Virus record (IMG/VR): IMGVR_UViG_3300020161_000515
Coordinates: 14,409-78,408 of that record
From: a virus
Lineage: Duplodnaviria; Caudoviricetes
DNA length: 64,000 nucleotides
Reading direction: 5' to 3' (one strand)
The notes beneath the pieces are model-generated. The model saw nothing but the letters and a program-made list of their open reading frames with translations. It was not told the origin of the DNA and did not search any database. Numbering within the stretch: position 1 is the first letter of the stretch; each line of letters opens with the position of its first letter. Shown piece by piece: positions 5,312-45,152 of the stretch. The translations under genes were made by a program, and so were the position numbers.

Positions 5312-5320
5312 AAGATAGCC

Positions 5321-5430
5321 TTAATTTAAGCCGTTTTAAGCGGCTTTATTAGTTCGCCGCTATGATGGTATTACTTAACTAATTTGTAGCCGTAAATGAC
5401 CAGATTCTTGCCAAATACGGCTATGTTCTC
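5321..5430 (+). repeat. Dispersed structured intergenic element, copy 1
   Basis: 24-bp exact match (aatttaagccgttttaagcggctt, 5323-5346) to the reverse complement of 39949-39972. 18-bp exact match (ccagattcttgccaaata, 5400-5417) to 18148-18165. Core gctatgatggtattacttaac at 5359-5379. Confidence 0.85.
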
Positions 5431-5450
5431 AAGCTACTTAACAACAATTG

Positions 5451-5873
5451 TTAAGCATTGCCTTCAGTGATTGAGGCACTGATAACACTGATTGGGCCAC
5501 CTTGAATAATGTCGGTGCTGTTTAATTTAATATCGCCTGAACCTGAGTTATTGCTAACATCTAAGTCCATAACGAAACCACCGTCACCGTTGCTAATTCT
5601 AGCCCAAGTTGCAGTACCGTTATTATCGGCAGCAGTATCTTGAGCAACAGCAGAGAAGGTAAGAACACCGTTGTCAATACTGGCAGCACAAGGCTTGCTG
5701 AATGTCAGAGTACCTAATAACAAGTTGGTGAATGGGTCAATAGCACCGCCTGAAGTTGCTGGTCTATTACCTGAGTAAATTTTTAATGTACCAGGAGTAG
5801 CACCTGCGTCAATAGCGTTAGCTATTTGGGTTGCACGATTGTTCCGGACACTTGTTGCAAATTTAATAGTCAT
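5451..5873 (-). CDS. Conserved small phage tail/fibre-associated structural protein (140 aa)
   Basis: Pattern SVRNNRATQIANAIDAGATPGTLKIYSGNRPA...LLGTLTFSKP...GTATWARI matches a widespread phage minor structural family; highly-expressed-type codon use. Confidence 0.65.
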   Translation of the reverse strand: MTIKFATSVRNNRATQIANAIDAGATPGTLKIYSGNRPATSGGAIDPFTNLLLGTLTFSKPCAASIDNGVLTFSAVAQDTAADNNGTATWARISNGDGGFVMDLDVSNNSGSGDIKLNSTDIIQGGPISVISASITEGNA

Positions 5874-5909
5874 TGATCTGTTTCCTATAAAGTTTTATAT
5901 CTGTAATTT

Positions 5910-8900
5910 TTAATCGCCTAAAACTACGGTAGTATGAGTTTTAACTCTTCGTTCTGAATCAGGATCGAATACAACCGAGTACTCTCCCTCAATCAAATTT
6001 GTGACCTCAAATGAGACTGTACTCAAATGCTGGACTTGGATCACCTCACCTGTGTCTCCATCATATACTCTTATGTAGCCTTTCTTATCGGAAGGCTTAG
6101 AAGAACTGTCAGGTATTATATCACCTTCAATGCTGTAATAAACATCAGAAATGGCTTCTGCAGGTTTATCATAAACATTGATCCTAGCTGCAAATACAGA
6201 ACCATCTAGCTCACTGAACCAGTGTCCGAAGGTTCTATACATTAATTTTAGTTCTATTGAAATGGATTCAGTTGTAGCGTCAATATATCCTTTGACAGGT
6301 ATATATCCAATAATAACTGGAATCACTGAATCTAATACTAGATCAGCTCTGACACCAATAGGAACTATGTATTCTAAGTTTATATCACTGAGGGCGTTTT
6401 GTAAAGTTGCATCCATATAAGCTCTTGCAACAACAGCTAATCTAAAATCAGCCTGTGCATAATCCATCATGCCAAAGAACTCTAATTCTAACGGTCTTGC
6501 TCTGTTAAGTAAAATACTTGGATAGCACCTTTCTGTTTCAGCATTAAATACAGAATAAGCATCTGTTTGCAATTGAAGGTCTGTTGTAATATCACCAGCC
6601 TTAACCAACATCCATACATCAGTGTTAGATGATCTTGTGTATTTCATCTTGATGTAACATGAGGCATGTCTTAGTGTGTTCTCAAATTTCAGAACAATGT
6701 ATTTAATGGCTAGTTTAAAATCAGCAACAGAATCAGCAGTTACAGGATTGAAAACCTTAATAGCCATTTCAGTTCTAACTCTGAAATTCATCTCAGGTTC
6801 GTCAGGAGTGGCTAAGATAAACATCCAACGGTACTCTCTGACCTCACCAATGATGTGAGTTTTTATATCTGTAGTGCTTGTTCTGATATATCCGAAACAA
6901 TGAAAAGGAACGGTGGCATATATATTAGACGAACTATCTTGAAGCGTTGCTCTGAAGTATGCAGGCATTACTGCTCTCATAGCCATATAAAAATCTATAT
7001 GGTTGGTGAAAACATTGAACATGCCTTCTGCTCCACCAGCTCTAAGTTTTATCTTAGAAGTTGTTTCTTTAGTGGTAAGATGCATTGTTCCTATCATGAC
7101 CTCAAGAACCATTGCAATCAAGCAGTCAACTGTAAGTGCTCCACCACGTTCTTCTAGTATGCCTACTATTGGTATCCGGCCTTTAAATGCGGCAGCAGCA
7201 TCAGAGAATGGCATCTGTGTGCCTTCATACACAAACATTGGAGGATTGTCGTATCCTATATATCCAGGTTCATTTGGTTTGTTTGGTCTAGATCCTAAGT
7301 CAACAATGAAATGACCTTTTACAAGTAATGGAGTATAAAGCTGGATATCTGCTTCCACATACGCAGTACATTTGAGCATGTCATGTTGAATGGCTCTAAA
7401 TCCTTGTAATTCGGACGTGGTGTAACGACCTAACCATCTTGGATCATCAAACTCCTCTTCTGGATCACCTACCAAGTGATCGTATCCTACCATTTTGCCG
7501 TAGGTATTCTCAGCAATAACAAACTGGAATAATCTAAGATCAGCAGTTCTAGTAACAAGCCTAGCAACTATTCTTGATAGAAGTCTTATTTGTGAAGTAG
7601 AATCTTCTAGAACTCTTCTAAAATATATCTGGGTTCTAGGATTCATCAACTCTATTTCAAAGATAACTGATCCAGTGTTTGGATTTAAAACACCTGATAG
7701 ATTTGAGAATAGAATAGTTGACTCAACTCTAGGAGTTGTTCCTATTAATCGCCCCCCTCTGGATACGTCGCCATTAACAGTGATGCCAATATTATGAGTA
7801 GAAGAATCAAGTAATCCGAAGATTCTGTAAGGTACTCTGAGGTAAATGTATATGAATTTAACATTTTCTAATTGAACGTGTGACGTTCCAGTAAAATGAT
7901 TAATGATAGACATTATGTTAATTGTTAACGAAATGTCACCTGTGTTTCCATTCATCTCACCGTGTCTGGTGTGTGGTGATGAGAATAAGAAATTTGAGAA
8001 AGCATCATCTAGTGTACGTTTCAAAAATATAATAATGCTGCCTGATCCTGCTGCATCTAGAACAGCATCAGCAAGAACAGAAGATATCCTCAAACCAGAA
8101 CCTATTACTTTAATCTCAAAAGATATTCGTGTTGTATCTTCAGTAACAGTATTTAATATTAAATCTGTTGTTAGTGCCAAGTTAATAGATGAGTTCAAGA
8201 ATGTCGTAGCATTTAATCTCAAACCTTGAGTTGGATTGTTGGCTAGTATTTTTGACAGAACATCCTGAATTTGTAGTGCGAATCCTGCCTCATAATCTGG
8301 TGGACGAATATAAGTGTTTAATGCAAAGTCTGAAGTAACCTTCTCAGTAATACATTCCAAAATAAAGAATGAGTCCTGCTTACCGTATATTTCAGTAGTG
8401 ATGTTCTTAGTCTTACACTCAATTGTAGCTCTGACATTAACTATCGTCATAGCCTTTATCTTAGGTTCTATATTATCTAGCCTTGGTCTAAATACAGCAT
8501 AGAACGTTAAGCCTTTGAAGACCGGAATAATATTTGGAGTTGTTGGAGTCATTACTCCATACACCGGAACTGCCATTGAAATTACAGACAGTGCTGGATT
8601 TGTTTTGGCTAAGAAAGTTACCAAAGTTCTGAATGGAACTGTTCCTTCTATTTTTGAGATGATGGAAGGTGTTTTAGTTTGTATTCTTCCTATAACAGGA
8701 TGGTTTAATCCTATAGATGCCACGCATGTCTTAGTGGTAACTGCCATTACCATCAAAGATGATTTGCTATTGTGCAGTCTCAAATCCAGCAATACATTGC
8801 TGAGATTAAATTTAAACAGCATATTTAATGGAACTGGAATTCTTCCTTCACCTAAGAAGTAGTCATTCTTTAATTGGCTTGACAGTGTAAATCTGCATAA

Positions 8901-13061: not shown

Positions 13062-13080
13062 TACTCTTACTGGCTAGAAG

Positions 13081-16632: not shown

Positions 16633-16640
16633 ATTCTTTC

Positions 16641-18061: not shown

Positions 18062-18075
18062 GTTTTCCTCAAAAT

Positions 18076-18170
18076 AGCGGCTGTTTAAGCCGTGATTTGT
18101 TGCGGTGCTACGTTGGTATTACTTAACAGCCAATCACGCTTAAACAGCCAGATTCTTGCCAAATATAGCC
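18076..18170 (+). repeat. Dispersed structured intergenic element, copy 2
   Basis: Core gctacgttggtattacttaac (18107-18127) is enclosed by an ~18-bp inverted repeat (18079-18097 / 18132-18149). ccagattcttgccaaata at 18148-18165 is identical to copy 1. Confidence 0.85.
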
Positions 18171-18174
18171 AGGT

Positions 18175-18408
18175 TTAAATGTAGTATCGCTTCAAACTCG
18201 TCTCCGGTTGAAGTCGTCCTACAATAACACCATTCTCGATATGAACTTGATCGCCTTCTCCTAGTGTTGAAAGCAATGTACTCTTACAATCAAGCTGACC
18301 TTTAATGGTGCTAACTTTAACTCTGTCGCCTTGAATATTTACAACTTTCCCAGTAGAGTAAGATCTAACTGGATTAAGAACGCCTCGTAATTCGTCAATT
18401 ATGCTCAT
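18175..18408 (-). CDS. Small OB-fold-like tail-tip protein (77 aa)
   Basis: TGKVVNIQGDRVKVST...GEGDQVHIENGVIVG resembles short spike or tip OB-fold proteins; last gene of the tail-tip cluster. Confidence 0.5.
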   Translation of the reverse strand: MSIIDELRGVLNPVRSYSTGKVVNIQGDRVKVSTIKGQLDCKSTLLSTLGEGDQVHIENGVIVGRLQPETSLKRYYI

Positions 18409-18417
18409 AAAAAACCT

Positions 18418-19334: not shown

Positions 19335-19346
19335 TGTGAATACCTT

Positions 19347-20934: not shown

Positions 20935-20935
20935 A

Positions 20936-24731: not shown

Positions 24732-24733
24732 TC

Positions 24734-25738: not shown

Positions 25739-25779
25739 ACTAACCTCAGATTGTTATTAATTTAATTTAATAATAGATA

Positions 25780-26514
25780 TTAATCATCTATTTCTACTTT
25801 ATAATCTATAAGAGCTGTATAAACTTTAGGATCAATATATTCTTTATACAATTCAGCAACTCTTTTAATTTCAGATTCTTTAGCTTCTTTATAGGCTTGA
25901 AAGGCTAATAACTCGGTTTCAAAACATCCTAAATAAATATTTTCATTATTTATTCTACAATCAGCTCTATATGAATTTTTACATCTAGTATTAATGCTAA
26001 CACCTATTGGAAGACCTCCTCTAGAAGATCCACATTTTGTAAAAAGCTTATTAACATCTTGTGGAACTAAACAACACCTTTCTTTTGAATAAAGTTTATT
26101 GCCTTTTATTAAAATATCTTTATCTAATTGCCAATTTAATAATGAACCTACCATCTGTTCATAATCGTGTGCAAAATTCTGAAAGTTGTACCAAGATTCT
26201 GAAACAAAACAACCTTCGTATGTAGGATGATCTTTTAAAGAAAGAGTATCATAACATCTTTGAAGCAAATTAGTCCAGATACTATAAAGTTTTTTATGTG
26301 AATTTTTTGAAAAATTTCCTACACCATAAAAGCCTATTCCACAAACAGAAGGAAAATAAGGATTTTTTACATTTCCTTTTCTTAAATTACCTGTTTCACA
26401 ATAAGTTTCATAACCATCTTCAAAAATAACTCTTACATTAAGAGCGTTTAAATACTCTACAACAGTACAAAGACCTGAATTTGTTTTAAAAACATCGCCA
26501 ACAGATGGTTTCAT
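25780..26514 (-). CDS. Free-standing HNH-type homing endonuclease with C-terminal AP2 DNA-binding domain (244 aa)
   Basis: YSIWTNLLQRCY...HPTYEGCFVSESWYNFQNF...WQLDKDILIKGNKLYSKERCCLVP, then LPIGVS...YLGCFETELLAFQAY. Visibly more AT-rich than the flanking genes. Confidence 0.85.
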   Translation of the reverse strand: MKPSVGDVFKTNSGLCTVVEYLNALNVRVIFEDGYETYCETGNLRKGNVKNPYFPSVCGIGFYGVGNFSKNSHKKLYSIWTNLLQRCYDTLSLKDHPTYEGCFVSESWYNFQNFAHDYEQMVGSLLNWQLDKDILIKGNKLYSKERCCLVPQDVNKLFTKCGSSRGGLPIGVSINTRCKNSYRADCRINNENIYLGCFETELLAFQAYKEAKESEIKRVAELYKEYIDPKVYTALIDYKVEIDD

Positions 26515-26535
26515 CGTAATACCTATTAATAAATT

Positions 26536-26910
26536 TTAAAGAGTTATTAGTTTTATAGTACCGAAATGATAATCAGATGGTTCTTCACCATCTACGAATG
26601 GTTCAAGCTCAACAGCAGGACTATCTTGATGCCTAAACATGACATTAGCAAAAAACCCATGATACTCGAAAGTATAAGACATTCCTGAAGAGTTTGCTAG
26701 TGCTATTATTGAGTCTACTTGAGAGGCAGTAAGCCAGCCTTGAGTCTGAGTAGCCTGCAACGTGATGTGTCGCCCATTAACAGCAGCAACAGATTGCATA
26801 ATAGTCTTTCCACCAAGAGTAACGACTGAGCCTTGATATACTGGACTATGTTTATGCTTGTCACTCCAGATCATCTCTGGAGGAAGTATTAAGTTTGATA
26901 TTTTTATCAT
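26536..26910 (-). CDS. Putative distal tail (Dit-like) protein (124 aa)
   Basis: First gene after the tape measure; LPPEMIWSD...TLGGKTIMQ...GRHITL...GTIKLIT is typical of short Dit-like proteins. Confidence 0.6.
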   Translation of the reverse strand: MIKISNLILPPEMIWSDKHKHSPVYQGSVVTLGGKTIMQSVAAVNGRHITLQATQTQGWLTASQVDSIIALANSSGMSYTFEYHGFFANVMFRHQDSPAVELEPFVDGEEPSDYHFGTIKLITL

Positions 26911-29900: not shown

Positions 29901-32900
29901 AGCCTGTCTAGCTGATGGTTCAACCTTGGTATAGGTGACCATTGATTTTTGAAGATCACCAGCTAATTTCAATCCATCTGAATACTTGCTAACACCATCA
30001 GTAAGAACTCTTACAGCTTTGTTAGTCTGTTCAAATTCTCTTGATTGAGCAGTTGCGAACTTAGCGGAATCAATCTCTTTGACTTTCATTCCAAGAGCGT
30101 CATACACCGCTATAACGTTGCCTAATTTATCTTTGACATTATTAAGCGATTCAGTTTTGAAATCTAATGGAACAGGTTTGGCTAAAGTGTTTTTAACAGT
30201 CTCAACAATAGGAGCCTGTTTAGCCATTTCATTCCCAACATTTGTGGCAGCAGCGGCAATACCTTCCACTCCGGCAGCAGCACCTTTGGCAGAATCTTCA
30301 ATAGCTTTTGCTCCAGCGGCAACCTGTTCTCCTGATTTCTTTGCTGCATCTCCTTGTTGCTCAGTAGAAGTTTTAGCTTCGTCAGTCTTGGTTTTAAGCT
30401 CAACCATGCTCTTAGGCACGTTTTTAGCAGATTCTGCAATAGCTCTATTCTTAGCTTCAACGGCATCTAAGGCTGGTTGTAATGCCATAGCTGTTTCAGA
30501 AGCCCTGCCATAATCTAACAATTCTGTAGACTTTCTTACACGATCTATGACTCGTATCTGCTCTTCAATAGCCATAGTGGTAGTACGAATGTTCTTTTTA
30601 AATTCGTCATTACCAGAAGTCCTTCCTAGATTTTTATACATGTCCTCTAGGTCTTTTTTGACTTTCTTCAGAGCTTCTAGATCAAGATCTTTTGCAGCGT
30701 CTTTTACTACATTTGTTTGACCTTCTTTTAATCCTTTTCCAAGCTCTATATCTACCTTTATAGGTATTACTGATAGTATGTCAGTAAAATGTTTTGAGGC
30801 TTCTTTAGCCTTAGCTGCAATATCTTCTTTATTTAGAACAAGATCAAGCCCTTTCATCTCAGTAAAAGTATCTAACTGACCTTGCATCAACTCTTTATAA
30901 GTTTTTACATCATCTAAAGCCTTGGTCAAAGAAGCCTTTTGCTTTTCATTTTTAACTTCTGGCAGTATAAGAGATAACGCATCTTCTAGCTTCTGAAGAT
31001 CTTTTACTTGATCTTCAGCAAGCCTTGATGTTAGTTCCAATTGTTTCTGAGCGTTACCTGAATCCCAAGATGAATCTAAGACATCATTGAACGCACTTGC
31101 AAAATTTGACTGAGCTAGGTTGGCTTCTGCGACAGCTTTCTCAAGATTATTATAATAATCTATAGCAGCCATATTCTCGGTTGCAGATTTTATAGGTGCT
31201 GCATTCTTTACTAGCTCATCTCTCTTTTCAATAACAGCATTAAGTTCTTCTAAAGCCTTTTTATCGTCAAGCAATCCTTTCTGGATACTAACAGTGCCAT
31301 TAGCAATATCCGCAAAACCTCCAGATTTTACTGCTAACTTCTCAAATAACGAAATAAGCTTCTCAATAGCTGCAACCATTTTATCGCTTGTTTCTTGTAT
31401 TATTTGTCCAGTCTTTGCTATCTCCTCCTGAAGTTTTCTTTGTGCCTCCACAAGCATTTGAGTTGCGCCATCTTTAGCAGAATTCCAAATGCTTCGGATT
31501 TCATCAACCTGTTGTTTAACAGAAGTGACTAATCCACTATCACCTGATTTAGCAATGTCAGATTGTTTAGCCTTTAGTAGATCAGCAGCCTCTTCTGCAA
31601 GACTCATTGCCTTGGCATAATGACCAGCTTCTGCTTCTGTTCTAGCCTCAGCAGACTTTTTAGTAGCTTCTACCTTAGCCTGCTCAATGCTATCAAATCC
31701 TCCCATGTCAAAAGGATCTTTAGAAATTGCAGTTGAAAACTTATCCAATGACTTATTGAACGAAACTGCCTTAGCCTCTAGTGAGTTAATAGCGGTAGCT
31801 AAATTCTCGCTTTGAGAAATCATCTGATCCATTGACTCTTTATACACATCTTCAGATTTCTTAAGAGTGGCTATAAATTTGTTATATGAATCTATCTGAG
31901 CTTCAGCAAGACCAGCAGAACCTGTTCCAGTAACACTGGTCTCAGCTAATGCCTTTCTTATTGACTCTTCTTTCCGTAGTGATTCCGTTATTATAGTTTC
32001 ACGTCTTTGATTTTGCTCTATTATCCTATCTGTTACAAAAGCCTCGTAAGTACCAGTTTCATCTGCCTTCAGTTTCTCAGCGGCTATTGTAGCCTTGGTA
32101 GTTCTGGATAATAAATCCAACTTAGTTTTATTTATTTCAGCATCTTTTCTAGCATTAGCATCTAATTGTTTATCTATAGAATCAAAGGCTTTTTTGTAGT
32201 CAGATTCTATTTTTTTAGAAACTTCGCCAGCAGATTTTTCAAGCTCTTTAAATGACTCTTCTAATTTCGCAGTATTGGTTTGCAGTTCTAACGAAACTGC
32301 TATTACTGATTTAATGTCTCCGGTGTCACTAAGAGACTTTTTAAAATCTTTTATTTCTTTCTCAAACTTCTCAGTTAATTGGTTTATCTCTGTTTGACCA
32401 ATTTTTCCTTGGGCTACAAGCCTGTCAATCCAAAGTTTTAAACGTTCTGAAATAGCGTCATCTAACTGGGCGTCCTTAGTGATATACGATAAACTTTCCA
32501 AAGATTGTCTGAACGCAGATACCATCACTTCTGTATTGGCTAATACTTCTTGAGAATCTTGTGCTGAAAACTCTGCTTTCTTTAGCCATCTGTTCTTGTT
32601 TTTATTTAAAGCATCTGCAAGTATTAATGCCTTTGCATCTATCGCTTGAACAAGAGTTTCTATACTTGTCTTTTCTATTTCTTGTCTGCTCTTAGATACG
32701 AACTTTTCCATAGCTAATGGATCAATAATTCCATTTTCCATTAGCTTCAGTCTGGTAGTTTCTTTTAATCCGGCAAATGCAACGTCAATCCCTTCAAGTT
32801 TTATTCCATTCATTTTATAAGTAAATGTTACATCTTTGTTGCCAGTTTTCTCAAAGATGCTTTTTATCTTATCTATTTTTTCTTTAGAAATCGTGTCACC

Positions 32901-35900
32901 TTTTATATCAAGATCAATATTAGATGCACCTCTTTTACTAGCCTCAATCCAGTTTTTTAAAGCCTTTTCAGCATCCTTAATATCGTTTGCATACTTAACC
33001 ATAGATTCAGATTGCTTATCCATGTTAAGAGCAGTTTCTTTAGCACGTTCTACTTGCGTAAAGTATCTGTATAAACCATAAACAGCAGTACCTAGAGCAG
33101 CCAGGGCTATTATTGCAGCGATGTATGGATTAGCCATCATAGACAAGCTTAATGCCATAAATGCTTCTGAAAGCACTCCAAGACTAGCAGTTGCCATTGC
33201 TAATCTTCCTACTAGCACCGCTAGTCCTGTTCCAAATCCAGCAATAGTCTTAGCAATGCCAGTCATTATTGTTGAACCAAGAAGCAGTAGTGCAGATCCG
33301 AAAGAGTTTACCTTTTCTCTTAATACTGAAACACCTGCGGCAGCAGACTTAGACGCTCCAACTGCCAGAGCAGCCTCACCTGTCATAACTTGACCAGCAG
33401 CAATGACTGTCTGAGTTGTTCCTAAAGTCTTAGTAGCTGAGGTAAGCCCGTTCATGACTACTGTAGCTCTAGCAGCAGAGCTACCCAAGACATTCAATGC
33501 AGCGGCATGAGCAAACGTAGAAGCAGCAGAAATTCCAGTGGCGGCAGCCTCAGCATGTAGAAGCACTATGCCAGCGGCTAATGTTTTCATAAAGATATTC
33601 ATAGCCCCAACAAACTGAGCTACTGGAACTATTACTAAGAACCATGCGAAGGTCATTGATCCTAATGCAGCCATAGCAGCAGCAATAGAAGCGGCAACAA
33701 CATCTAGCACTTTAGCAACAGGGCCTAGTGCGCTATGAATATTTGCGAAAGTTTGGACAACTGATGTTCCTACATCTAACAAAAGTTTTAAAGGGCCTTC
33801 TAGATTGGATGAGATTGTGTGCATCAAACTTTGAATTGATCTTGTAAACAATTCAAATTTTCCTTGCAATGTGTTCTGCATTACATCTGCCATTGCAGCA
33901 GTTGTTCCACCAGCAGTATCTAGCCTACCTATAAATTCGTCTAATGCACCAGATCCTTGTCTTAGTAATGCAGCAACACCAGGACCAGCTCTTTGACCAA
34001 ACAACGCTAGAACTTCATCTGATTTTATTCCAGCCTTTTCTAATTGACGTAATACTTCCGCAAAGCCTATAAAGTCACCATTGGCATTTTTAATCTGTAA
34101 TCCTGCACCACCTATTCTGTCGCCAAGATCACTCATCAACTTGGCTTCTTCTTTGGTTGGATTGAATAAATGCTCTAACATTCCGCGTAATGCAGTACCA
34201 GCCATTGTGCCTTGTAGGCCAGCATTAGATAAAACACCAATAGTTCCTACAGTTTCTTGTAACGAAACCCCAAACCCTTTGGATAACGCACCAACGTATG
34301 TAAATGCGTGTCCTATATCTGAAACACTGGCAGTAGATTCGTTAGCGGCTTTTACTAGAACATCTGAAGCTACGGATGTTTCTTTAACAGATAATCCATA
34401 AGTATTCATCATGTGGGTTACAGTGGTGGCAGCCTCACCTACACCGATAGCAGCACCTTGGGCTAATCTAAGTACAGTAGGTAAAGCACCTATAGCATCT
34501 TTAGCTGAAAAACCAGCCCTTGATAATTCTTCTAAACCTTTAGTAGCTTCTACTGGACTAAATCTTGAAAACGCTGTCAAGTTAAGAGTTGTATGAACCA
34601 GTTCTTTCATTGATTCGTTAGAAGCCTCAGTAACACCTTGGACGACACCCATTGCATCACTGAAAGAAGAAAAGTCTTTTACTGCCTTAGCAAAAGGAGC
34701 AAGCATGGCCTGACCCATCATCATGATACCCATTGACCATGTGACAACACCAGATCTTAATCGAACGAATTGATCCTCTAACTCAGTTAGACCCATTTCT
34801 AGGTCTTTGATTGCATTTTTAGAAACTCCTAAATCTTTAGCCAGATTAGTGAAGTAGTTGCTAATCATTTTAGATAACAACGATCCTTCTTCAGTAACAG
34901 CTCTCATGGTGGCTCGTAAGCCAACAAGTTGTTCTATAGCCTTGCTGAAAACAGAAGTAGATTTTAGAATTTCTGAGTTCATCTCAGAAGTGTTACCTAA
35001 TCCTATTCTCTGAGACTGCATTCTTACCTGCATCTCATCAAGTGATTTCAAAATAGTCTTAATGCTTTCTTCTGCATTATTAGCATTAAGCTTAATATTG
35101 TATTCTTTCTCTAGACTGGCAACAAACTCTTTATCTATTTTTAAAAGTTTTTCAAACTGAGTAAAGGCTTCTGAATTAAGTCTGATATTAGTGAAGTATT
35201 CTTGAAGCCTTGTTACTTCTTTTTCTGCAGTAGCTAGATCTTTTAATACTTCTTTTATCTGTAAATTAGAAAACTTTAACTCAAAGTTGGTAGCCTGTTT
35301 AGCATTGAAGATATGTGCATTATTTAATGTTGCCGCTACTTCACCTATTCTAGTCAATTCACTAGATAAGTTCTTTAGCTGTCCTGGCAACTCTTTCATG
35401 GAAGTTTGCATACCACGAAACATCGTGGTCTCATTAACTTTCTTCATTCCATCGGCTAGTGTCTTAGTAACACCACCTAATTCAGAAAGAACAACTTTTA
35501 AAGCATTTGCTCTAGTAGTCTCTGAGACAGTTTCGTCAGTTAAGATTTTTAACTGATTTATAAGCGTTTCTATTCCGGAAACATTAATTCCAAAGGATGA
35601 AAATAAAGATCTGAAATCTTCAAATGATTTGGTAAGAACACTAAGAGTATTTAAAACTTCTGTTCCATTAAGTCTGATATGTAGTGACTCATCAGCCGTA
35701 CCAGAAGCCATCTGTTTTAGGTAATTGAAACTACTAACAACAGTGGAAATTGCTGCAGATATTGAAACTTCAGATTGTTTAGCAGAAGCATTTAATTTGT
35801 TGAATAAGTTTACATTTGTGCCTTCTGCACTTAACTGGGTTAAAGTCTGAACCATCTTGCTCAGATTTGACTCTAATCCTTTAATTGATGATGCAGTAGA

Positions 35901-38900
35901 AGATACTTGAGCAGACCATCCACCAATGCTAGGAAGCAATGTTAGTTTAGATGCTTCTGCTAAGGCTTCTTCTGACCTAACAACTGCATCTATAGCAGCC
36001 TTTACAGCCTTCAGATCATCATCAGCCTTTCTAATATCAAGATTCTGGAACGCATTCTTTATATCTCCAAATCCTGTAAAGGTTGCATTATTTCCAGTTA
36101 ATTTTTTATACAAAATAGCTATCTGGTTAGCACCATTTGAAATAACATCTTTGATAGCATTTACTTCTTTTTCAACACTATTTTTTGTAGTGACCAGGCT
36201 TTGTGGTAAGAACTCTAATCCTGATTTAGCAGTAATCTTGCCGGAAGAAAGTTTATCAGTATTGGCTATTAAATCTTTAATAGTCTTTGAAACAGACTCC
36301 ATTGACGCAACAACGGATTTGTTTGCAGATATTTCTTGCGCTTCGGCATCAGTAAAAGCTTTCTTCTTTTCAGCGGCCTTGGTGTAGGCATCAACATTTG
36401 CACTTACTTCTGTAGTAAGAGCAGCCATCTCAGCAACCATCACCTGAACGGTAGATGCTGAACTTGATGGAAGTACCGAAGATTTGCTAAGGTCGTTAAA
36501 ACTATTTGCAAGAGTTGTTGCCTCAGCCTGCAGCCTATTCATTAACCTAAGAACGTTGGAAAACTCAGCTCCATTATTAAGACTATCTACAGCAGGTAAA
36601 GTTGCTAATTGCTCTTTAATGCCTTTAAGTCGTGTAGAATAATTTGATAGTGATTCTTCTGAAACCTTAATATCACGGGTAAATGCGTTTATCGAAGAAA
36701 TGGCAGCTTCAGATCCTTCTTTAAACTGGTTGAGTATTCTCAACATCTCCTGAAACGTCTGTATCTCACCTTGATCTTGAGATACAGACATTTTCATGTT
36801 GATTAATGCAGCAGCCTCAGCTATCTGTCTGGTAAGTTCTTCACGTTTCTTTAATGCAGTAAGAACGTCAGCTTCAGTTTTAAACTCTTCAAGCTCACCT
36901 CTAAGCAATTGCTCATGGTCACTTACTATGTTCTTTATTCTGCCATTAATATTAGCGTAGACTTTATCTTGGTCATCAAGTCCTTTTGTCATTGACTTAA
37001 TGATCTGCTCACCAACTTGGAATAGTTTTATTTGATTGGCAACAGCAGGGTTTTCTGTAGTCTCAGCTTTGTTTGCTCTTATTAAGAATGAAGTGTATTC
37101 GTTTACTTTCTCAAGTAGTGCGTTCCACGAAGTTAATGTTTTTGGATTGACAGAAGGACCTAGTTCAGCCTTCATCATATTGGCTATCGAACTATCTGGC
37201 TTTAATGCGTCTAAGAAAGCCTTCAGTGATTTAGCTTTGGTCTGAGCTTTATCTAGGTTGTCAGTTAGTAAAGATGGGCCACTCTTTGTTCCAAAGTTAG
37301 CCAATACTTTCTGTGCAGTTTCTACCGACGCAGAAAAAGCTCTCACCTTTGCAACAGCAGTAGTGATCTGAGCTTCGTCTATGAATTTTGGAGTTGTTGT
37401 TTGTTTGAACTCTACTGCCTTGGCAGCGTCTCTAGCCATTGTAGCTAGTTGAGATAACATTCCTTTTTCTTTCTCAAGAAGCATTAATACGTTAGTAGCA
37501 GCCTCACCAACTCTAAACTGACTCTCAGCAATAGCATTTGAGAAGCTTGTTATCTGATTAAATGATGCTGCTAAACTACTTATGCTCTCCGCAATTCCAG
37601 CAATATCAATCAGTTTTACAGGTTGACCAGCTTTAGATTTTAATGAGCTGAAGAATGACTCTAAACCAGAAGCAGCGGCAAGACTTTCAAATAGACCAAC
37701 TTGCTCTCTTAGAGCAACATTCTTCGTTGACATTGCAGCAGATAATGCCCATTCTTCTGCCGCTATTGCAGAAAGTTTTTGAGCTATACCAGATACGTTC
37801 CTTGATAATCTGTCAAAATGACCAGCCTGAGTTCCTACAGAGGTATCACTTATAATATCTTCAAGGTTTACATTAATGCCTTTTAGATTTTCTACGACTG
37901 CTTCTTGCATAGCCTTTTTCATGCCAAGAAGTCTGTCTTTGAAAAAGTCTGATCCAGGTAGTGTTATATTTATTCTTGTTTCTTGAACAGCTTTTAATCC
38001 GTCAAAGATAGCCTTTAAATCTGCTACTGAAAGTTTAACCTTTGCAATAGATTCAGTCATTTTGTTGGCATATTCAGTAAAAGGATCTGCTTGTATCTTT
38101 ACACCTAGAATTGCCTGAATATCTTTTTGAAATGGTTTAAAGTTTCTTTCTACCTGTTCTACGGCTGTTTTTAAAGACTCATTAAATCTTCCGTAACCTA
38201 TTCCAGGAAGTTCTACTTTGTTTTCTTTCTTGTTGAAAAATTCATTCAATGCAACCTGAACAGATTGAGCATACGCCTGTATCTGCTCATTACCTTGTTT
38301 AGGTACTTCTACCTTACCTAATCTAAAGTTGATTGGAATAGTTCCAACAGCCAAAAACTCTGAGCGAATGTCATCTAATTTTCTTTCTGCTGCCCTTCTG
38401 GCTTCTTCTAACGAATTGATAAAAGGTCTGAAATCAGCTTCATGTATAGTAAGATTAGAAAACTTTAATAAACCCTCATTATTCCTTTGAAGTTCTGCTG
38501 CTAAACCTAATAATTTACTGAAAGCCTGTGTTACAGAAGTGGCAGTTCCTCTAAATTTTTTAAGATCAGTCTCAGACTTGGTCATGGCGGTCATGTTCTC
38601 GCCAATCTTCTTAATGCCTGATGCTACTGTGCCAAGACTTCCACCCACTGAAGCATCACGCAATCTGCCTACGGCAGTCGCAAGATCTCCAACACTGGAT
38701 ATAGTGCCTTTATTAATCTTTATATTGTTTAGAGGTTCTTTGAGATTAGTCGTCGAAGTGTTTACATCTCTTACAAGCTTGTCCATTGCACCTTTAAAGG
38801 TCTGCAACGGAGCAAATGACTCTGTGATTATGGCGGGGATTTCTTTAAAACTGTTTCCAACAGATTTAGTTACGTCTTTGGCCTCAGATGATAACCTAGT

Positions 38901-39017
38901 AAATCCATCTATTGATTCTTTTACACTCGCAAGCAGGGTAGTTAAGCTCTCAGCGGCAGCTTGGGTGTCTGCCAGAACTTTTACGTCTAATACGCCTAAG
39001 ATATTATTATCAGCCAT
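26907..39017 (-). CDS. Tail tape measure protein (~4036 aa)
   Basis: TP901-family core (FSDAMGVVQGVT...FSPVEATKGLEELSRAG...SNAGLQGTMAGTALRGML), long amphipathic helices, and C-terminal HFATGG...VPAMLEAGEFIMRKTAV. The ATG at 39017 with a GGTGA RBS is preferred over the GTG at 39026. Confidence 0.95.
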   Translation of the reverse strand: MADNNILGVLDVKVLADTQAAAESLTTLLASVKESIDGFTRLSSEAKDVTKSVGNSFKEIPAIITESFAPLQTFKGAMDKLVRDVNTSTTNLKEPLNNIKINKGTISSVGDLATAVGRLRDASVGGSLGTVASGIKKIGENMTAMTKSETDLKKFRGTATSVTQAFSKLLGLAAELQRNNEGLLKFSNLTIHEADFRPFINSLEEARRAAERKLDDIRSEFLAVGTIPINFRLGKVEVPKQGNEQIQAYAQSVQVALNEFFNKKENKVELPGIGYGRFNESLKTAVEQVERNFKPFQKDIQAILGVKIQADPFTEYANKMTESIAKVKLSVADLKAIFDGLKAVQETRINITLPGSDFFKDRLLGMKKAMQEAVVENLKGINVNLEDIISDTSVGTQAGHFDRLSRNVSGIAQKLSAIAAEEWALSAAMSTKNVALREQVGLFESLAAASGLESFFSSLKSKAGQPVKLIDIAGIAESISSLAASFNQITSFSNAIAESQFRVGEAATNVLMLLEKEKGMLSQLATMARDAAKAVEFKQTTTPKFIDEAQITTAVAKVRAFSASVETAQKVLANFGTKSGPSLLTDNLDKAQTKAKSLKAFLDALKPDSSIANMMKAELGPSVNPKTLTSWNALLEKVNEYTSFLIRANKAETTENPAVANQIKLFQVGEQIIKSMTKGLDDQDKVYANINGRIKNIVSDHEQLLRGELEEFKTEADVLTALKKREELTRQIAEAAALINMKMSVSQDQGEIQTFQEMLRILNQFKEGSEAAISSINAFTRDIKVSEESLSNYSTRLKGIKEQLATLPAVDSLNNGAEFSNVLRLMNRLQAEATTLANSFNDLSKSSVLPSSSASTVQVMVAEMAALTTEVSANVDAYTKAAEKKKAFTDAEAQEISANKSVVASMESVSKTIKDLIANTDKLSSGKITAKSGLEFLPQSLVTTKNSVEKEVNAIKDVISNGANQIAILYKKLTGNNATFTGFGDIKNAFQNLDIRKADDDLKAVKAAIDAVVRSEEALAEASKLTLLPSIGGWSAQVSSTASSIKGLESNLSKMVQTLTQLSAEGTNVNLFNKLNASAKQSEVSISAAISTVVSSFNYLKQMASGTADESLHIRLNGTEVLNTLSVLTKSFEDFRSLFSSFGINVSGIETLINQLKILTDETVSETTRANALKVVLSELGGVTKTLADGMKKVNETTMFRGMQTSMKELPGQLKNLSSELTRIGEVAATLNNAHIFNAKQATNFELKFSNLQIKEVLKDLATAEKEVTRLQEYFTNIRLNSEAFTQFEKLLKIDKEFVASLEKEYNIKLNANNAEESIKTILKSLDEMQVRMQSQRIGLGNTSEMNSEILKSTSVFSKAIEQLVGLRATMRAVTEEGSLLSKMISNYFTNLAKDLGVSKNAIKDLEMGLTELEDQFVRLRSGVVTWSMGIMMMGQAMLAPFAKAVKDFSSFSDAMGVVQGVTEASNESMKELVHTTLNLTAFSRFSPVEATKGLEELSRAGFSAKDAIGALPTVLRLAQGAAIGVGEAATTVTHMMNTYGLSVKETSVASDVLVKAANESTASVSDIGHAFTYVGALSKGFGVSLQETVGTIGVLSNAGLQGTMAGTALRGMLEHLFNPTKEEAKLMSDLGDRIGGAGLQIKNANGDFIGFAEVLRQLEKAGIKSDEVLALFGQRAGPGVAALLRQGSGALDEFIGRLDTAGGTTAAMADVMQNTLQGKFELFTRSIQSLMHTISSNLEGPLKLLLDVGTSVVQTFANIHSALGPVAKVLDVVAASIAAAMAALGSMTFAWFLVIVPVAQFVGAMNIFMKTLAAGIVLLHAEAAATGISAASTFAHAAALNVLGSSAARATVVMNGLTSATKTLGTTQTVIAAGQVMTGEAALAVGASKSAAAGVSVLREKVNSFGSALLLLGSTIMTGIAKTIAGFGTGLAVLVGRLAMATASLGVLSEAFMALSLSMMANPYIAAIIALAALGTAVYGLYRYFTQVERAKETALNMDKQSESMVKYANDIKDAEKALKNWIEASKRGASNIDLDIKGDTISKEKIDKIKSIFEKTGNKDVTFTYKMNGIKLEGIDVAFAGLKETTRLKLMENGIIDPLAMEKFVSKSRQEIEKTSIETLVQAIDAKALILADALNKNKNRWLKKAEFSAQDSQEVLANTEVMVSAFRQSLESLSYITKDAQLDDAISERLKLWIDRLVAQGKIGQTEINQLTEKFEKEIKDFKKSLSDTGDIKSVIAVSLELQTNTAKLEESFKELEKSAGEVSKKIESDYKKAFDSIDKQLDANARKDAEINKTKLDLLSRTTKATIAAEKLKADETGTYEAFVTDRIIEQNQRRETIITESLRKEESIRKALAETSVTGTGSAGLAEAQIDSYNKFIATLKKSEDVYKESMDQMISQSENLATAINSLEAKAVSFNKSLDKFSTAISKDPFDMGGFDSIEQAKVEATKKSAEARTEAEAGHYAKAMSLAEEAADLLKAKQSDIAKSGDSGLVTSVKQQVDEIRSIWNSAKDGATQMLVEAQRKLQEEIAKTGQIIQETSDKMVAAIEKLISLFEKLAVKSGGFADIANGTVSIQKGLLDDKKALEELNAVIEKRDELVKNAAPIKSATENMAAIDYYNNLEKAVAEANLAQSNFASAFNDVLDSSWDSGNAQKQLELTSRLAEDQVKDLQKLEDALSLILPEVKNEKQKASLTKALDDVKTYKELMQGQLDTFTEMKGLDLVLNKEDIAAKAKEASKHFTDILSVIPIKVDIELGKGLKEGQTNVVKDAAKDLDLEALKKVKKDLEDMYKNLGRTSGNDEFKKNIRTTTMAIEEQIRVIDRVRKSTELLDYGRASETAMALQPALDAVEAKNRAIAESAKNVPKSMVELKTKTDEAKTSTEQQGDAAKKSGEQVAAGAKAIEDSAKGAAAGVEGIAAAATNVGNEMAKQAPIVETVKNTLAKPVPLDFKTESLNNVKDKLGNVIAVYDALGMKVKEIDSAKFATAQSREFEQTNKAVRVLTDGVSKYSDGLKLAGDLQKSMVTYTKVEPSARQAFSIDTTKLKEAMVDTRAFDNALQALTRYDKLNIGVISNFSEAEKQLQDVSNAVADLDKVQTALAADFSSGAIDIKEFTKVNEVIDIMKGKLQESFDYTKNRAISLSVTTDGIEQGSQRLKDMNELILKTQTDLLNKPIVVAPKVEIPKVEVPKAEIPPVVITPKIEMPKVEIPKAEVPPVVITPTVEIPKVELPPIEPPVIQPVSPDSLVQALQPVAEKFKEFTGLMKAEPFIPKVDTAPALQSFLNFTTTLNKNILDVPKFPKLVDATTLSGFAKMSEDVKFAEGVLKEFTGISIQGIQEQGNSWRNLEKELFKVDAAYYDVLKVHSMLDALKISGGLKDGEYEKLTAYNELLKNGIVKSLAEIDVKTGEVFKIPDSMFQDTFQSFDYSMEHTSKQVDKLVAKLAQPADFNFLPDSNITGGIEKLKELTLAVEKTAGTIKIEPQVDINPNLQKFLEFASTIKQQVDTIPKVPPLVDATTLDGFTKLSSNATFAKNVLMGFTGISIGEIADVSDLDSLKNQLGLIDNAMRNLRVSQATLESGKITGVVSPEAYSKLSAYNDLVKNGLSQSLDAVKVKAIEFLGKASTVPDSGIKDYQQNLMDVGNQLVELTNKINTPVNAEIIPKAAIDRGMSNLEELTEVVTNVASTIKIEPTVDVNKASEELKQLPDQVNADDKFKINLPVGTIGLPGTRDELDQLKTKVTEVSQAFTDVSEKGIKINADTAPAEQKLSALKESWVTQAVDGFNMPVSFPGSEEIMTKLSTINTKLQATKENGIFITDNASPELEKVAQKLSELTAANAKIPIEVQDKATSVLDRIKSAINDIRGKVVDIVTRYTSSGAPGHHFGGVIEPMQVAHFATGGDVFTKPNYSVVPGAGDGDKVPAMLEAGEFIMRKTAVNKFGINFMDALNNGVLQFKQSGGVISGIRSSVTSSLNYDPRAIAHYSSGGYVQTSKPASNDSHDVVEVHLKVGDNPNPFSMKSDRDTAHELLKVLKNVR
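29295..29493 (-). repeat. Pro/Lys/Glu-rich pentapeptide repeats inside the tape measure gene
   Basis: PKVEI PKVEV PKAEI PPVVIT PKIEM PKVEI PKAEV PPVVIT PTVEI PKVEL PPIEPP. Confidence 0.85.
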
Positions 39018-39058
39018 CTCATTCACCAGTATAGGAATTCTCTAGTGAATAATAGCAT

Positions 39059-39094
39059 AAAAAAACCTCCAGCAGCAAAAGCCACTAAAGGTTT
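39059..39094 (-). terminator. Intrinsic terminator between the chaperone and tape measure genes
   Basis: Minus strand AAACCUUUAGUGGC-UUUU-GCUGCUGGAGGUUU followed by a U-run; the stem closes only with G.U pairs on this strand. Confidence 0.7.
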
Positions 39095-39097
39095 AGT

Positions 39098-39846
39098 TTA
39101 AACTCTAGAAAAAGCGGCAGCTAAACGCATCCATTCTTTCTTGTTAGCATCTGGATCTTCTTGTTTCGGTATCTTACTTTCTCGCTTCTTAACAAGACCT
39201 TTTATGTAATCACCCGAACCATTCGTACCCATCCAAGAATTTATTATGAACGAATCGTTTTCTTCCTCTTCTATCCTTATACACTCTCTGACAAAAACTC
39301 CAACTTCAGACAGTGTATAAGTTCTTATATCTTTCCAGCTATGGTTATGTTCAATTAAAAATTGAATTAACTTACCAATGGAATCCTGGTCTGAGGGGAC
39401 GTTACTTTTGTTCCCATGAACTGGGATATCCGATCCCCCAGACCGTTGAAGTTTTTTATTAATGAATCTTGAGACTCAATATTCACATCAAGGCAGAAGT
39501 TAAATAAGTCAAGAGCTTTATCTAACGGCAATGATTTAATATCTTCAACGTCAAGTCCTGACATGTCTGAAAGTATATCTGGACTTTCTTGCATAATGAT
39601 TCGCAGCAACGCCAGGATGGTCAATGAAGTCTGAGTGGCTTCATCTGCACCTTCAACCGGAGCAGGAATGTTGTCTTGAATTTTATCTGAAATGAGCGAA
39701 AGCTTGTCAAGTATTGACGCTAATTCCTCAATACTCAATGGAGTAATTTCAACTTCTGTTGCTCCAATTGTGTATTTTTTGTTAGGAAAAAGAGCAGCCC
39801 AGTCAGAGTCTTGAAGTCTTACTTTTTGTTTAGTTTGCCTTGCCAT
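39098..39846 (-). CDS. Tail assembly chaperone, -1 frameshifted long form (gpGT-like, ~249 aa)
   Basis: After A-AAA-AAC at 39457-39451 the -1 frame stays open to the TAA at 39098 and encodes LIQFLIEHNHSWKDIRTYTLSEVGVF...EWMRLAAAFSRV, typical of gpT-like segments. This frame is not in the ORF track. Confidence 0.85.
39367..39846 (-). CDS. Tail assembly chaperone (gpG-like, 159 aa)
   Basis: Directly upstream of the tape measure gene; GATEVEITPLSIEEL...LPLDKALDLFNFCLDVN; carries the slippery site near its 3' end. Confidence 0.85.
   Translation of the reverse strand: MARQTKQKVRLQDSDWAALFPNKKYTIGATEVEITPLSIEELASILDKLSLISDKIQDNIPAPVEGADEATQTSLTILALLRIIMQESPDILSDMSGLDVEDIKSLPLDKALDLFNFCLDVNIESQDSLIKNFNGLGDRISQFMGTKVTSPQTRIPLVS
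39451..39457 (-). promoter_or_regulatory. Programmed -1 ribosomal frameshift heptamer A AAA AAC
   Basis: In-phase X XXY YYZ heptamer (ATA AAA AAC = I-K-N) in the chaperone gene. Confidence 0.8.
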
Positions 39847-39859
39847 ACGTCACCGTAAA

Positions 39860-39975
39860 TTGATTAAAAACATAGCGAGAATTTCAACGTCAGTCGGTCA
39901 AATTTCAACGATATTTTGAAAGTAATACCATCGTAGCACCAAGCTATTAAGCCGCTTAAAACGGCTTAAATTGAC
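39860..39975 (-). repeat. Dispersed structured intergenic element, copy 3 (inverted relative to copies 1 and 2)
   Basis: The minus strand reads aatttaagccgttttaagcggctt...ggtgctacgatggtattactt...tgacc...aaat...gctatgtt, colinear with copy 1. Confidence 0.85.
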
Positions 39976-39992
39976 ACGATCTTGATATTGAT

Positions 39993-40540: not shown

Positions 40541-40543
40541 AAG

Positions 40544-42293: not shown

Positions 42294-42305
42294 GATCTAT
42301 TCTCC

Positions 42306-45142: not shown

Positions 45143-45152
45143 AACGTTCTCC

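Follow-up and report, generated by a model that had tools for sequence, protein, structure and literature searches.

The window, a 64,000-nt stretch of phage DNA, carries three copies of an intergenic cassette, and these are members of an old ~125-bp cassette family of one phage lineage. Gene control, not mobility, is the most likely role of the cassette. The reading that we favor, still tentatively, is that of a transcription-control cassette with fold-back arms, resembling the promoter-early stem-loops (PeSLs) of T4-type phages. Internal control points are a necessity for large lytic phages whose genes are arranged in long one-directional blocks. To our knowledge, very few such signals have been described outside T4 (PeSLs, MotA boxes) and the mycobacteriophages (SAS/ESAS, stoperators), and we know of none for this uncultivated clade of ~156-kb, very-long-tailed phages. 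Located at the edges of tail-fibre modules, the cassette can help to map the transcription units of these phages and, as a candidate binding site, to find their regulator; it may also be a joint for swapping host-range modules. Before a member of the clade is brought into culture, or the cassette into a reporter, it will be of limited practical use.

Cassette copies and their boxes

Exact pattern matching located the core GCTAYGWTGGTATTACTT at 5359-5376 (+), 18107-18124 (+) and 39920-39937 (-). When up to two mismatches were allowed there were still three matches, against 0.00 in 100 shuffles, and the 78-kb record holds no core matches beyond these three. The first-pass annotation had described three copies with a conserved core, and its three positions proved exact, as did the 24 identical bases that it reported for copies 1 and 3 (AATTTAAGCCGTTTTAAGCGGCTT) and the 18 for copies 1 and 2 (CCAGATTCTTGCCAAATA). 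It gave the element a size of ~100-115 bp; the element is real, but the homologous unit found by nhmmer is longer, ~125 nt. Each copy occupies one of the few gaps separating the minus-strand genes, between tail genes of this uncultivated long-tailed phage. Further copies exist elsewhere. The family comprises at least seven full copies of ~125 nt each, all intergenic, in G000 and G001, which are two fragments of one ~156-kb phage clade, and ~8 more diverged copies occur in the complete relative G008.

The cassette is built of three modules. The left module contains TTTAAGC-type motifs, which are fused as Box A (TTGGCAAGAATCTGG) in type I copies. In the middle lies the core, which is asymmetric (box 1, AAGTAATACCA-N-CRTAGC), while the right module, 23-25 nt past box 1, bears box 2 (GCTTAAAAC) and a second GCTTAAA one helical turn apart. 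The left and right modules are mutually inverted, so that most copies are able to fold back. Box A is exactly 23 nt from box 1 in copies 1 and 2 and in the 23-kb copy of G001, and in 12 instances box 1 is followed by box 2 after 23-25 nt. The 7-mer GCTTAAA/TTTAAGC behaves as an intergenic signal: its matches fall in the intergenic 1.7% of G000 in 6 of 20 cases, and in the intergenic 7.8% of G008 in 15 of 29.

Copy 1 is a type I cassette in gene direction (5317..5442, minus strand; nhmmer with a profile of the copies), lying between the stop codon of a 140-aa virion protein gene (5451-5873) and an ATG at 5311. Its core reads AAGTAATACCATCATAGC on the minus strand (5359..5376, exact pattern match), with box 1 at 5366-5376 (minus strand). 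Box 2 (5333..5341, minus strand) is located 24 nt past box 1 and 21 nt ahead of the ATG, and is contained in a small hairpin (5328-5346). Box A (5400..5414, minus strand) ends exactly 23 nt ahead of box 1 and includes a -10-like AAGAAT (5404-5409, minus strand); a -35-like TTGAGA is found at 5427-5432 (minus strand).

Copy 2, also of type I and in gene direction (18067..18187, minus strand; nhmmer profile), lies upstream of a 355-aa tail-fibre-module gene with its ATG at 18061. The core, AAGTAATACCAACGTAGC on the minus strand (18107..18124, exact pattern match), is enclosed by a fold-back (18079..18149, no strand assigned) with arms 18079-18090 and 18138-18149, a perfect 12-nt inverted repeat (12/12 paired), and by a second pair of 12-nt arms (18091-18102 and 18127-18138) that is 83% paired; an enclosing stem had been proposed for this copy. 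Box 2 reads GCTTAAACA on the minus strand (18082-18090) and is itself the fold-back arm, and Box A (18148..18162, minus strand) ends 23 nt ahead of box 1.

Copy 3 is a type II cassette running opposite to the genes (39853..39978, plus strand; nhmmer), and was found at E = 7.6e-7 by a profile built without it. Close to its left end, at a distance of ~7-25 nt, is the start codon of the tail assembly chaperone gene (ATG at 39846, minus strand). The core reads AAGTAATACCATCGTAGC on the plus strand (39920..39937, exact pattern match) and is followed by box 2 (39954-39962, plus strand) and, 10 nt beyond it, the second GCTTAAA (39964-39970, plus strand), with a small hairpin at 39947-39969. In the left module, as read from the sequence, two direct AATTTCAACG motifs 21 nt apart (39880..39910, plus strand) replace Box A, and GAGAATTTCAACGT is common to this module and the 0-kb copy of G001. 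A predicted sigma-70-like promoter, TTGATT-17-TATAAT (39993..40021, minus strand; 10/12 positions by consensus match only), would point through the inverted copy 3 to the chaperone and tape-measure genes.

Orientation follows subtype. Type I copies mostly run in gene direction and abut a ribosome site, box 2 being 20-21 nt from the ATG in copy 1, copy 2 and the 23-kb copy of G001, and 22 nt in the 28-kb copy of G008. Type II copies (copy 3 and the 0-kb copy of G001) run opposite to the genes. Sense copies stop ~20 nt short of the start codon, whereas the 3' end of the inverted copies does not abut it. Three of the seven full copies (copy 3 and those at 0 and 39 kb of G001) are set against their flanking genes, as are the G008 cassette at 104 kb and the L141 cassette. 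The presence of both orientations had been taken as an argument for a DNA-level role; this argument is weaker than claimed, since orientation tracks subtype and recurs in G008.

Conserved boxes and variable folds

Covarying stems had also been proposed; as a family-wide feature they were not confirmed, and the covariation is weak. No consensus fold was obtained with RNAalifold from the seven copies (-0.39 kcal/mol, 3 invariant pairs). When the copy 2 stem was mapped on all copies, 65.5% of the cells paired, compared with 60.9 +/- 2.3% in shuffles (reached by 24 of 500), and the covariation score was 0.188 versus 0.118 (reached by 10 of 500). Both sides had changed in 10 of the 21 mapped pairs, versus 6.2 +/- 1.6 in shuffles; the mapped structure comes from one of the seven related sequences, which inflates this signal. 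The folds of individual copies are heterogeneous, with z-scores from +0.8 to about -4.2. The enclosing stem suggested for copy 1 is not used in its minimum-energy fold, and the small hairpin of copy 2, described as having swapped arms, is the same box (GCTTAAAAC / GCTTAAACA) paired in another register, with no compensatory change. Only the TTTAAGC/GCTTAAA part of the arms is common to the copies, and the extensions differ from copy to copy.

These data bear on an explanation at the RNA level. Whichever way a cassette is oriented, its inverted arms could pair into a long stem within the polycistronic transcript and serve as an RNase III-type processing site and/or a stabilizer of mRNA ends, the boxes being kept by common descent. 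In T7, the intercistronic RNase III sites all have one orientation and a common, defined architecture of stem and internal loop. The present cassettes share with them intercistronic hairpins, some common sequence and a genome transcribed one way, but have no common fold. Such a module would account for the mixed orientations, as an inverted repeat folds either way round, and processing would be useful for genes arranged in long one-way blocks. Copy 2 has a stem of ~23 bp, and the folding of several copies is significantly better than that of shuffles (z -3 to -4.3). Arm matching is real in some (copy 2 and those at 0 and 39 kb of G001), the box 2 variants of copy 2 and of the 0-kb copy of G001 (GCTCAAATC) fitting their own left arms. 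The excess of pairs changed on both sides is in its favor too, subject to the inflation mentioned above. The stem-loop is strong in copy 2, the 0-kb copy of G001 and G002 and weak or absent in others. However, some copies fold no better than shuffles (z +0.8, -0.35 and -0.6), and no consensus structure spans the copies. Moreover, the hairpin of G002 and L042 stands ahead of the core rather than enclosing it. A stem alone would also leave unexplained the fixed spacing and strict conservation of box 2 and of the core, which lies in the loop where a stem encloses it. We consider the RNA-level explanation unlikely.

The conserved feature is a set of sequence boxes at fixed spacing, without one common RNA fold, and this fits recognition as DNA or as a protein-binding site. 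In this respect the DNA-level, protein-binding interpretation of the first-pass annotation is supported, while its mobile-unit part is not. The element had been regarded as undescribed, in agreement with Rfam, in which the window has no matches at gathering scores and nothing relevant around the copies at E up to 5.

Conservation of the loci in related phages

Four loci can be compared with the complete relative G008, which is ~65-70% identical in aligned gene segments. At each of them G008 has a copy in matching orientation, and this holds for the inverted copy 3 as well. Box 1 is exchanged for other sequence in two of the G008 copies. Pairwise identity among copies is 48-70%, and the copies are accordingly old. 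They appear to sit at module joints: a 12.7-kb tail-fibre cassette lies between copies 1 and 2, and copy 3 forms the edge of a 14-kb block missing from G008 (one genome pair being comparable). As cassettes are present in both replication and structural modules, they are not markers of one temporal class.

At two loci, presence or absence varies among G001, G002 and G008. The gap downstream of the DNA polymerase gene contains a cassette in G002, a plain hairpin in G001 and TTGCAT-17-TATAAT in G008, and the gap at the radical-SAM gene has a plain terminator in G002. At orthologous gaps the cassette is thus interchangeable with ordinary signals. The "empty" gaps contain other signals and are too diverged to define element edges.

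This distribution is relevant to the mobile-unit proposal, namely a MITE/REP-like non-autonomous element inserted in intergenic gaps either way round. Bacterial repeats of this type, such as Correia elements, ERIC, RUP and REP/BIME, are likewise short intergenic units with inverted arms that occur in both orientations and fold back, and the cassettes have CTTAAA-like motifs near both ends; the variable presence at two loci would also be in line with mobility. The bacterial repeats are high-copy, often near-identical, associated with target duplications and with cognate transposases or RAYTs, and found in cellular genomes, whereas the cassette family is low-copy (~8 per 156 kb), old, position-conserved and confined to phages. 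The identity among copies argues against a recent burst. Reading of the flanks gave no consistent target duplication, the element ends being fuzzy. No transposase-like gene turned up among the annotated proteins, where HNH homing endonucleases were the only candidates. The flanks of the arms match within a copy and differ between copies, which is the opposite of transposase-bound terminal repeats. Finally, a scan of 185,579 bacterial and archaeal species, one genome each, yielded three matches, which is the chance level. Because the copies are old, keep their loci and orientations in G008 and are absent from bacterial genomes beyond chance, a mobile element is very improbable.

The cassette could also act as DNA in some process unrelated to transcription, either as a phased GCTTAAA array bound by a protein of replication, recombination or partition, or through a core targeted by the multi-copy HNH homing endonuclease. 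The GCTTAAA motif does repeat in helical phase (10- and 21-bp periods), and both orientations occur. The HNH gene has 12 copies in G008, of which 4-5 directly adjoin a cassette; a different HNH gene occupies the copy-1 locus there, and the two G008 cassettes adjoining HNH genes at the copy-1 and copy-3 loci have an altered core. Nevertheless, most HNH copies of G008 are inserted away from cassettes, e.g. between the polymerase gene and its neighbor, and the single HNH gene of G000 (25780-26514) has no cassette beside it. Sense copies tightly abut ribosome sites, which is unexpected for an origin or partition site, and the binding protein is only putative. A role of this kind is quite unlikely.

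Proposed transcription control and known phage systems

In the transcription-control reading, the boxes would be recognized as DNA by the host RNA polymerase and/or a putative phage DNA-binding factor, and would start or gate transcription of the directly following gene. The fold-back arms would form a hairpin insulating the unit from upstream transcription and capping the 5' end of the new mRNA, and the dispersed patches of homology may act as joints for the exchange of tail-fibre modules. We infer DNA recognition, promoter/operator activity, the binding factor and the recombination role from these patterns. In its simple form, a promoter for the next gene cannot explain the copies that point against their flanking genes.

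Type I copies carry sigma-70-like hexamers, with a -35 of TTGAGA, TTTAAA or TTGAAA separated by 16-17 nt from a -10 of AAGAAT or GAAAAT, and this pair is kept at the copy-2 locus of G008 despite diverged sequence. A -35 match of at least 4/6 is present in four of the seven copies, versus a background of 15.5%. The -35 scores range from 3 to 5 of 6, with only 3/6 in three type I copies, and the -10 AAGAAT scores 4/6. No consensus sigma-70 early promoter (-35 plus -10) was found inside the cassette, only partial hexamers; none of the boxes matches a known promoter consensus well, and sites from a generic promoter scan were not in excess over shuffled sequence. As for possible factors, the complete relative G008 has neither a T7-like RNA polymerase nor a sigma-70 region 2, and the search of G000, G001 and G008 for sigma-54 activators gave no score that exceeded the family cut-off.

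PeSLs are ~100-bp composite promoter and stem-loop motifs of T4-type phages that end in a Shine-Dalgarno sequence and ATG, with a stem-loop of variable position (Arbiol et al. 2010, PMC2839356; Comeau et al. 2014, PMC4122927). The cassette, conserved over ~125 nt, is likewise a repeated intergenic composite with conserved boxes and, in some copies, a stem-loop of varying position, seems to lie at the edges of variable gene modules and, in its sense copies only, ends at the Shine-Dalgarno sequence and start codon of the gene that follows. In contrast, PeSLs possess a consensus sigma-70 early promoter and tested promoter and terminator activity, while the present boxes match no known consensus. 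PeSLs also number in the dozens and belong to hyperplastic regions of myoviruses, as opposed to ~8 per genome, some inverted, in replication and tail modules of a siphovirus-like phage.

The SAS/ESAS repeats of Cluster K mycobacteriophages (Pope et al. 2011, PMC3203893) offer a second parallel. They too are asymmetric motifs located shortly before the start codon of certain genes, some with imperfect inverted repeats and a variable spacer upstream and a few on the other strand, and they precede the same genes across related genomes; here, box 2 keeps its 20-22 nt from the ATG in four sense copies, and loci are kept between G000/G001 and G008. The sequences are unrelated, which makes this an analogy and not membership. 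In addition, SAS takes in the ribosome site, with 11-19 occurrences per genome, and the ESAS spacer is 4-13 bp, compared with ~45 bp containing a conserved core in the cassette.

A minimal unit, defined as box 1, N23-25 and box 2, was also found in other phages. It is conceivable, if doubtful, that AAGTAATACCA, 23-25 bp and GCTTAAAAC represent a new promoter/operator class, common to the otherwise unrelated uncultivated phages G002, G003, G004, L042, L141 and L118/L038 and read by a phage-encoded factor that would redirect the host RNA polymerase, as MotA/AsiA do in T4. The minimal unit is located where promoters are located. It lies ahead of a gene after a terminator in L042 and after a hairpin with a 15-bp stem in G002, where another unit is found between two tRNA genes, and in G001 it heads the leftward gene block of a divergent region.

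Cassette copies in the window and their anatomy

The analysis indicated that the intergenic cassette family is real and conserved within one phage clade. The 18-nt core reported by the first-pass annotation occurs at exactly the three places described and nowhere else in the viral record (G000); with up to two mismatches allowed, there were still only three matches, compared with none in 100 shuffled sequences. The 24-nt identity between copies 1 and 3 and the 18-nt identity between copies 1 and 2 were also found as described. All substantial ORFs of the window lie on the minus strand and leave about a dozen gaps of at least 40 nt, and among the four largest internal gaps, three are filled by the copies. 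The unit is a real element, but the proposed size of ~100-115 bp was too short. With a profile trained on copy 1, copy 2 and one foreign copy, each unit measured ~125 nt (5317-5442 and 18067-18187, minus strand; 39853-39978, plus strand), and copy 3, which was not among the training sequences, was recovered at E = 7.6e-7.

Described in the direction from box 1 to box 2, the cassette comprises a left end (AAAC(C/A)TAGC), a left module of subtype I or II, a variable stretch of 13 nt between left module and core, the core AAGTAATACCA-N-CRTAGC, which starts with box 1, then box 2 (GCTTAAAAC) 23-25 nt past box 1 and a second GCTTAAA 10 nt past box 2. The type I left module, TTGGCAAGAATCTGG followed by (G)GCTGTTTAAGC, is found in copies 1 and 2 and in the copies at 23 kb, 56 kb and 39 kb of the viral fragment G001. 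In the complete relative G008, the counterpart of this stretch is a tandem pair of GGCTGTTTAAGCC units, 21 nt apart. The type II left module, GAGAATTTCAACGT, characterizes copy 3, which bears the AATTTCAACG motif twice with a spacing of 21 nt, and the G001 copy at 0 kb. The distance from the end of the fused type I box (Box A) to box 1 is exactly 23 nt in copies 1 and 2 and in the G001 copy at 23 kb. The 7-mer GCTTAAA/TTTAAGC is strongly enriched between genes: 6 of its 20 matches in G000 fall within the intergenic 1.7%, and 15 of 29 in G008 within the intergenic 7.8%.

G000 is 78,408 bp long, of which the window covers bases 14409-78408, and has an estimated completeness of 56% (CheckV). In transcription order, the minus-strand genes begin with terminase, portal, protease and major head protein (61571-57067), followed by the major tail protein (53932-54924), a run of tail-fibre-like genes, the tail assembly chaperone (39367-39846), a 4,039-aa tape measure protein (26907-39026; PF10145) and large distal tail and fibre genes. 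No close cultured relative was found, the best matches of the major head protein and polymerase being ~30% identical. The gaps after the major head protein (57015-57066) and major tail protein (53837-53931) genes contain ordinary minus-strand hairpins unlike the cassette, the latter followed by a T-run, and a GC-rich terminator-like hairpin at 51412-51490 (minus strand) is likewise an ordinary signal unlike the cassette. Between the chaperone and tape measure genes, 340 nt without a long ORF (39027-39366, minus strand) probably represent a frameshift extension of the chaperone, of the G/GT type, and are closed by a 14-pair terminator-like hairpin (39063-39094, minus strand). A ~14-kb block of tail-fibre-like genes (40028-53836) separates the major tail protein gene from the chaperone gene. 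Since in G008 nothing but one HNH gene and a cassette stands between the two, the block is an indel, and copy 3 borders it.

Distribution across the phage clade and beyond

The exact core is present in further IMG/VR contigs, including G001 (65 kb), which has a full-length counterpart resembling copies 1 and 2, and the 23-kb fragment G002. The replication genes of these fragments encode helicases, an SbcD-like nuclease subunit, a UvsX-like recombinase, a DNA polymerase and a queuine tRNA-ribosyltransferase-like protein, and no protein common to G000 and either of them was found. G008 is complete (156,133 bp, with a terminal direct repeat); its structural half aligns to G000 and its replication half to G001/G002, at ~65-70% nucleotide identity, so that the four sequences sample one ~156-kb phage clade. 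Three further G001 copies, outside the profile training set, were recovered at E = 8e-11, 8e-10 and 2e-8. In total, G000 and G001 carry seven full copies, G008 has about eight more diverged ones, and identity among copies is 48-70%.

Every comparable locus (n = 4) has a copy in G008. The cassette is in sense orientation at the copy-1 locus (141013-141127) and, in diverged form, at the copy-2 locus upstream of a P-family fibre gene. The ortholog of the G001 23-kb copy, upstream of a radical-SAM gene, still has both boxes, 22 nt ahead of the ATG, and the copy-3 counterpart, upstream of the tail chaperone, is again inverted. Orientation is thus an inherited trait linked to subtype, with type II copies pointing against the genes and type I copies along them, the one exception being the type I copy at 39 kb of G001. 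The first-pass annotation had taken the presence of both orientations as favouring a DNA-level role; copy 3 is indeed inverted, but this inherited, subtype-linked orientation weakens the argument. Turnover appears at deeper divergence. A cassette site of G001 and G008 is a plain terminator in G002, and downstream of the polymerase gene there is a cassette in G002, a plain hairpin in G001 and a near-consensus TTGCAT-17-TATAAT in G008.

A scan of bacteria and archaea, with one genome for each of 185,579 species, gave three matches, which is the chance level, and the cassette is thus not a host repeat. A metagenome scan gave no contig other than G002. The search for closer relatives at the loci of copies 2 and 3 yielded only G008/G009 and distant high-GC phages that lack the element. 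Relatives of the gene upstream of copy 1 (L145-L148) are uninformative, since their operon ends there in a bidirectional terminator. Taken together, the age of the copies, their conserved loci and orientation, their turnover and their absence from bacteria argue against a MITE, making the mobile MITE/REP-like unit, one of the options proposed at first, very improbable, and for a maintained phage signal. The cassette is most likely neither a MITE nor a single structured RNA.

Another DNA-level role, including a link to homing endonucleases, was also considered. The 244-aa gene at 25780-26514 (minus strand) encodes a free-standing HNH homing endonuclease (PHROG 953, E = 8e-67), which has 12 copies in G008 (50-56% amino-acid identity) dispersed between genes. 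Four or five of these 12 directly adjoin cassettes, and the G008 copy-1 locus hosts a different HNH gene. A role of the cassette as homing-endonuclease target receives weak support; however, most of the G008 HNH copies lie where the cassette is absent. Overall, a DNA-level role other than transcription control, this one included, seems unlikely. We take the association to reflect a common preference for the few regulatory gaps.

A minimal unit that lacks the left module and has only box 1 and, 23-25 nt on, box 2 was found in G002 and in other phages, the latter having few proteins in common with the clade; of the matches picked on both boxes, some may be chance, since ~4 are expected. In G002, one unit lies between a 15-bp-stem hairpin (5') and a gene (3'), and another, with a 13-bp-stem hairpin, between the last two tRNA genes of an array (L021:1-920). 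This array contains tRNA-Leu, tRNA-Arg and, according to Rfam, two more tRNAs, of which ARAGORN missed one. In contig L042 and its near-identical relatives, an intrinsic terminator is immediately 5' of the unit and an ORF is 3'. The unit is also present in two related phages (L118, L038) and in L141, where it comes after a hairpin within 740 nt of non-coding DNA and is oriented against the genes on either side. Core-only forms occur as a tandem pair upstream of an operon in G003 (box 2 degenerate) and in a divergent region of G004 (box 2 not recognisable). An initial two-box scan of viral contigs gave more than 113 matches, nearly all from the reverse strand of one widespread phage protein-coding motif (…FKLW.EQIFGWYYF…; L025-L136), which matches AAGTAATACCA-N23-GCTTAAA by chance and swamps scans; this artefact was excluded by a refined two-box pattern.

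Fold-back potential of the two modules

Because a single motif recurs in inverted form in the left and the right module, the cassette has the potential to fold back on itself. Copy 2 can form a near-perfect 23-bp stem enclosing the core, and the fold-back arms pair at 16 of 18 positions in the G001 copy at 0 kb and at ~14 of 16 in that at 39 kb. RNAalifold found no structure shared across the copies, the excess of pairing and covariation was weak when the copy-2 stem was mapped onto all of them, per-copy fold z-scores ranged from +0.8 to -4.2, and Rfam gave no match for the cassette. Of the covarying stems initially proposed, what holds is a recurrent potential for fold-back that appears at times locally compensated. 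The supposed swap of hairpin arms between copies 1 and 2 proved to be a difference in the pairing register of one and the same box 2 sequence, and the minimum-energy fold of copy 1 pairs otherwise than in the suggested enclosing stem. The family is defined by sequence boxes and spacing, not by a single fold. A purely RNA-level hairpin function is considered rather unlikely.

Candidate function in transcription control

We infer a function in transcription control, and the best explanation, held tentatively, is that the cassette may be a control element recognised as DNA. Type I copies carry modest matches to sigma-70-like hexamers (-35 TTGAGA, TTTAAA or TTGAAA; 16-17 nt; -10 AAGAAT or GAAAAT), and the pair is retained at the G008 copy-2 locus despite sequence divergence. 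If transcription began a few bases past AAGAAT, the mRNA would carry the fold-back arms at its 5' end. A generic promoter scan showed no surplus of promoter-like sites, and neither a phage-type RNA polymerase (PF00940) nor sigma-70 region 2 was found in G000, G001, G002 or the complete G008. Copies in inverted orientation cannot act as promoters of the gene that follows. A predicted sigma-70-like promoter of near-consensus sequence (TTGATT-17-TATAAT; 39993-40021, minus strand) lies just upstream of inverted copy 3 and is aimed at the chaperone and tape-measure genes; copy 3, located between this promoter and the chaperone gene, would thus be transcribed as a structured leader.

Several other readings were rejected. 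Box A as a sigma-54 promoter (TGGCA-N6-TGGC) fits the -24/-12 spacing, but GG and GC are both kept in only three of seven copies, and no sigma-54 activator was found above the cut-off. An extended -10 on the plus orientation of the first-pass annotation (TGgTATTAC) has a hexamer ending in C instead of T and no consistent -35, and in most cases would point against the genes. Reading AAGTAATACCA as a tRNA-like 3' end failed for want of a T-arm and of any ARAGORN or Rfam match. The core can also be read as a mini-ORF, (A/T)TG GTA TTA CTT (M-V-L-L…), of 6-24 codons with an ATG or TTG start (5363-5383, 18113-18124 and 39911-39931, on the strand reading GCTAYGWTGG…); most copies have it, but it is lost in three of G001, and it is probably a coincidence, since in copies 1 and 2 it would be read antisense to the genes.

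In its behaviour the cassette resembles the promoter-early stem-loops (PeSLs) of T4-type phages, but a sequence match is absent. PeSLs are ~100-bp composites of a promoter and a stem-loop of variable position, end in a Shine-Dalgarno sequence and ATG, and are located at module borders (PMC2839356; PMC4122927). The cassette also resembles the start-associated SAS/ESAS repeats of Cluster K mycobacteriophages (PMC3203893), with no sequence match to ESAS.

Two further features of G001 were observed. A Ro60 ortholog with TROVE and Ro60 vWA domains (L019:727-2352, minus strand) is preceded, ~630 nt upstream on the same strand, by a 125-nt tRNA-like RNA with a long anticodon-arm insert (L019:2981-3105), which looks like a YrlA-type Y RNA. 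The queuine tRNA-ribosyltransferase-like gene (L017:18216-19847, minus strand) and a weak radical-SAM-like gene (L018:2389-3339, minus strand; PHROG E = 6.7e-6) suggest 7-deazaguanine modification of phage DNA in the clade.
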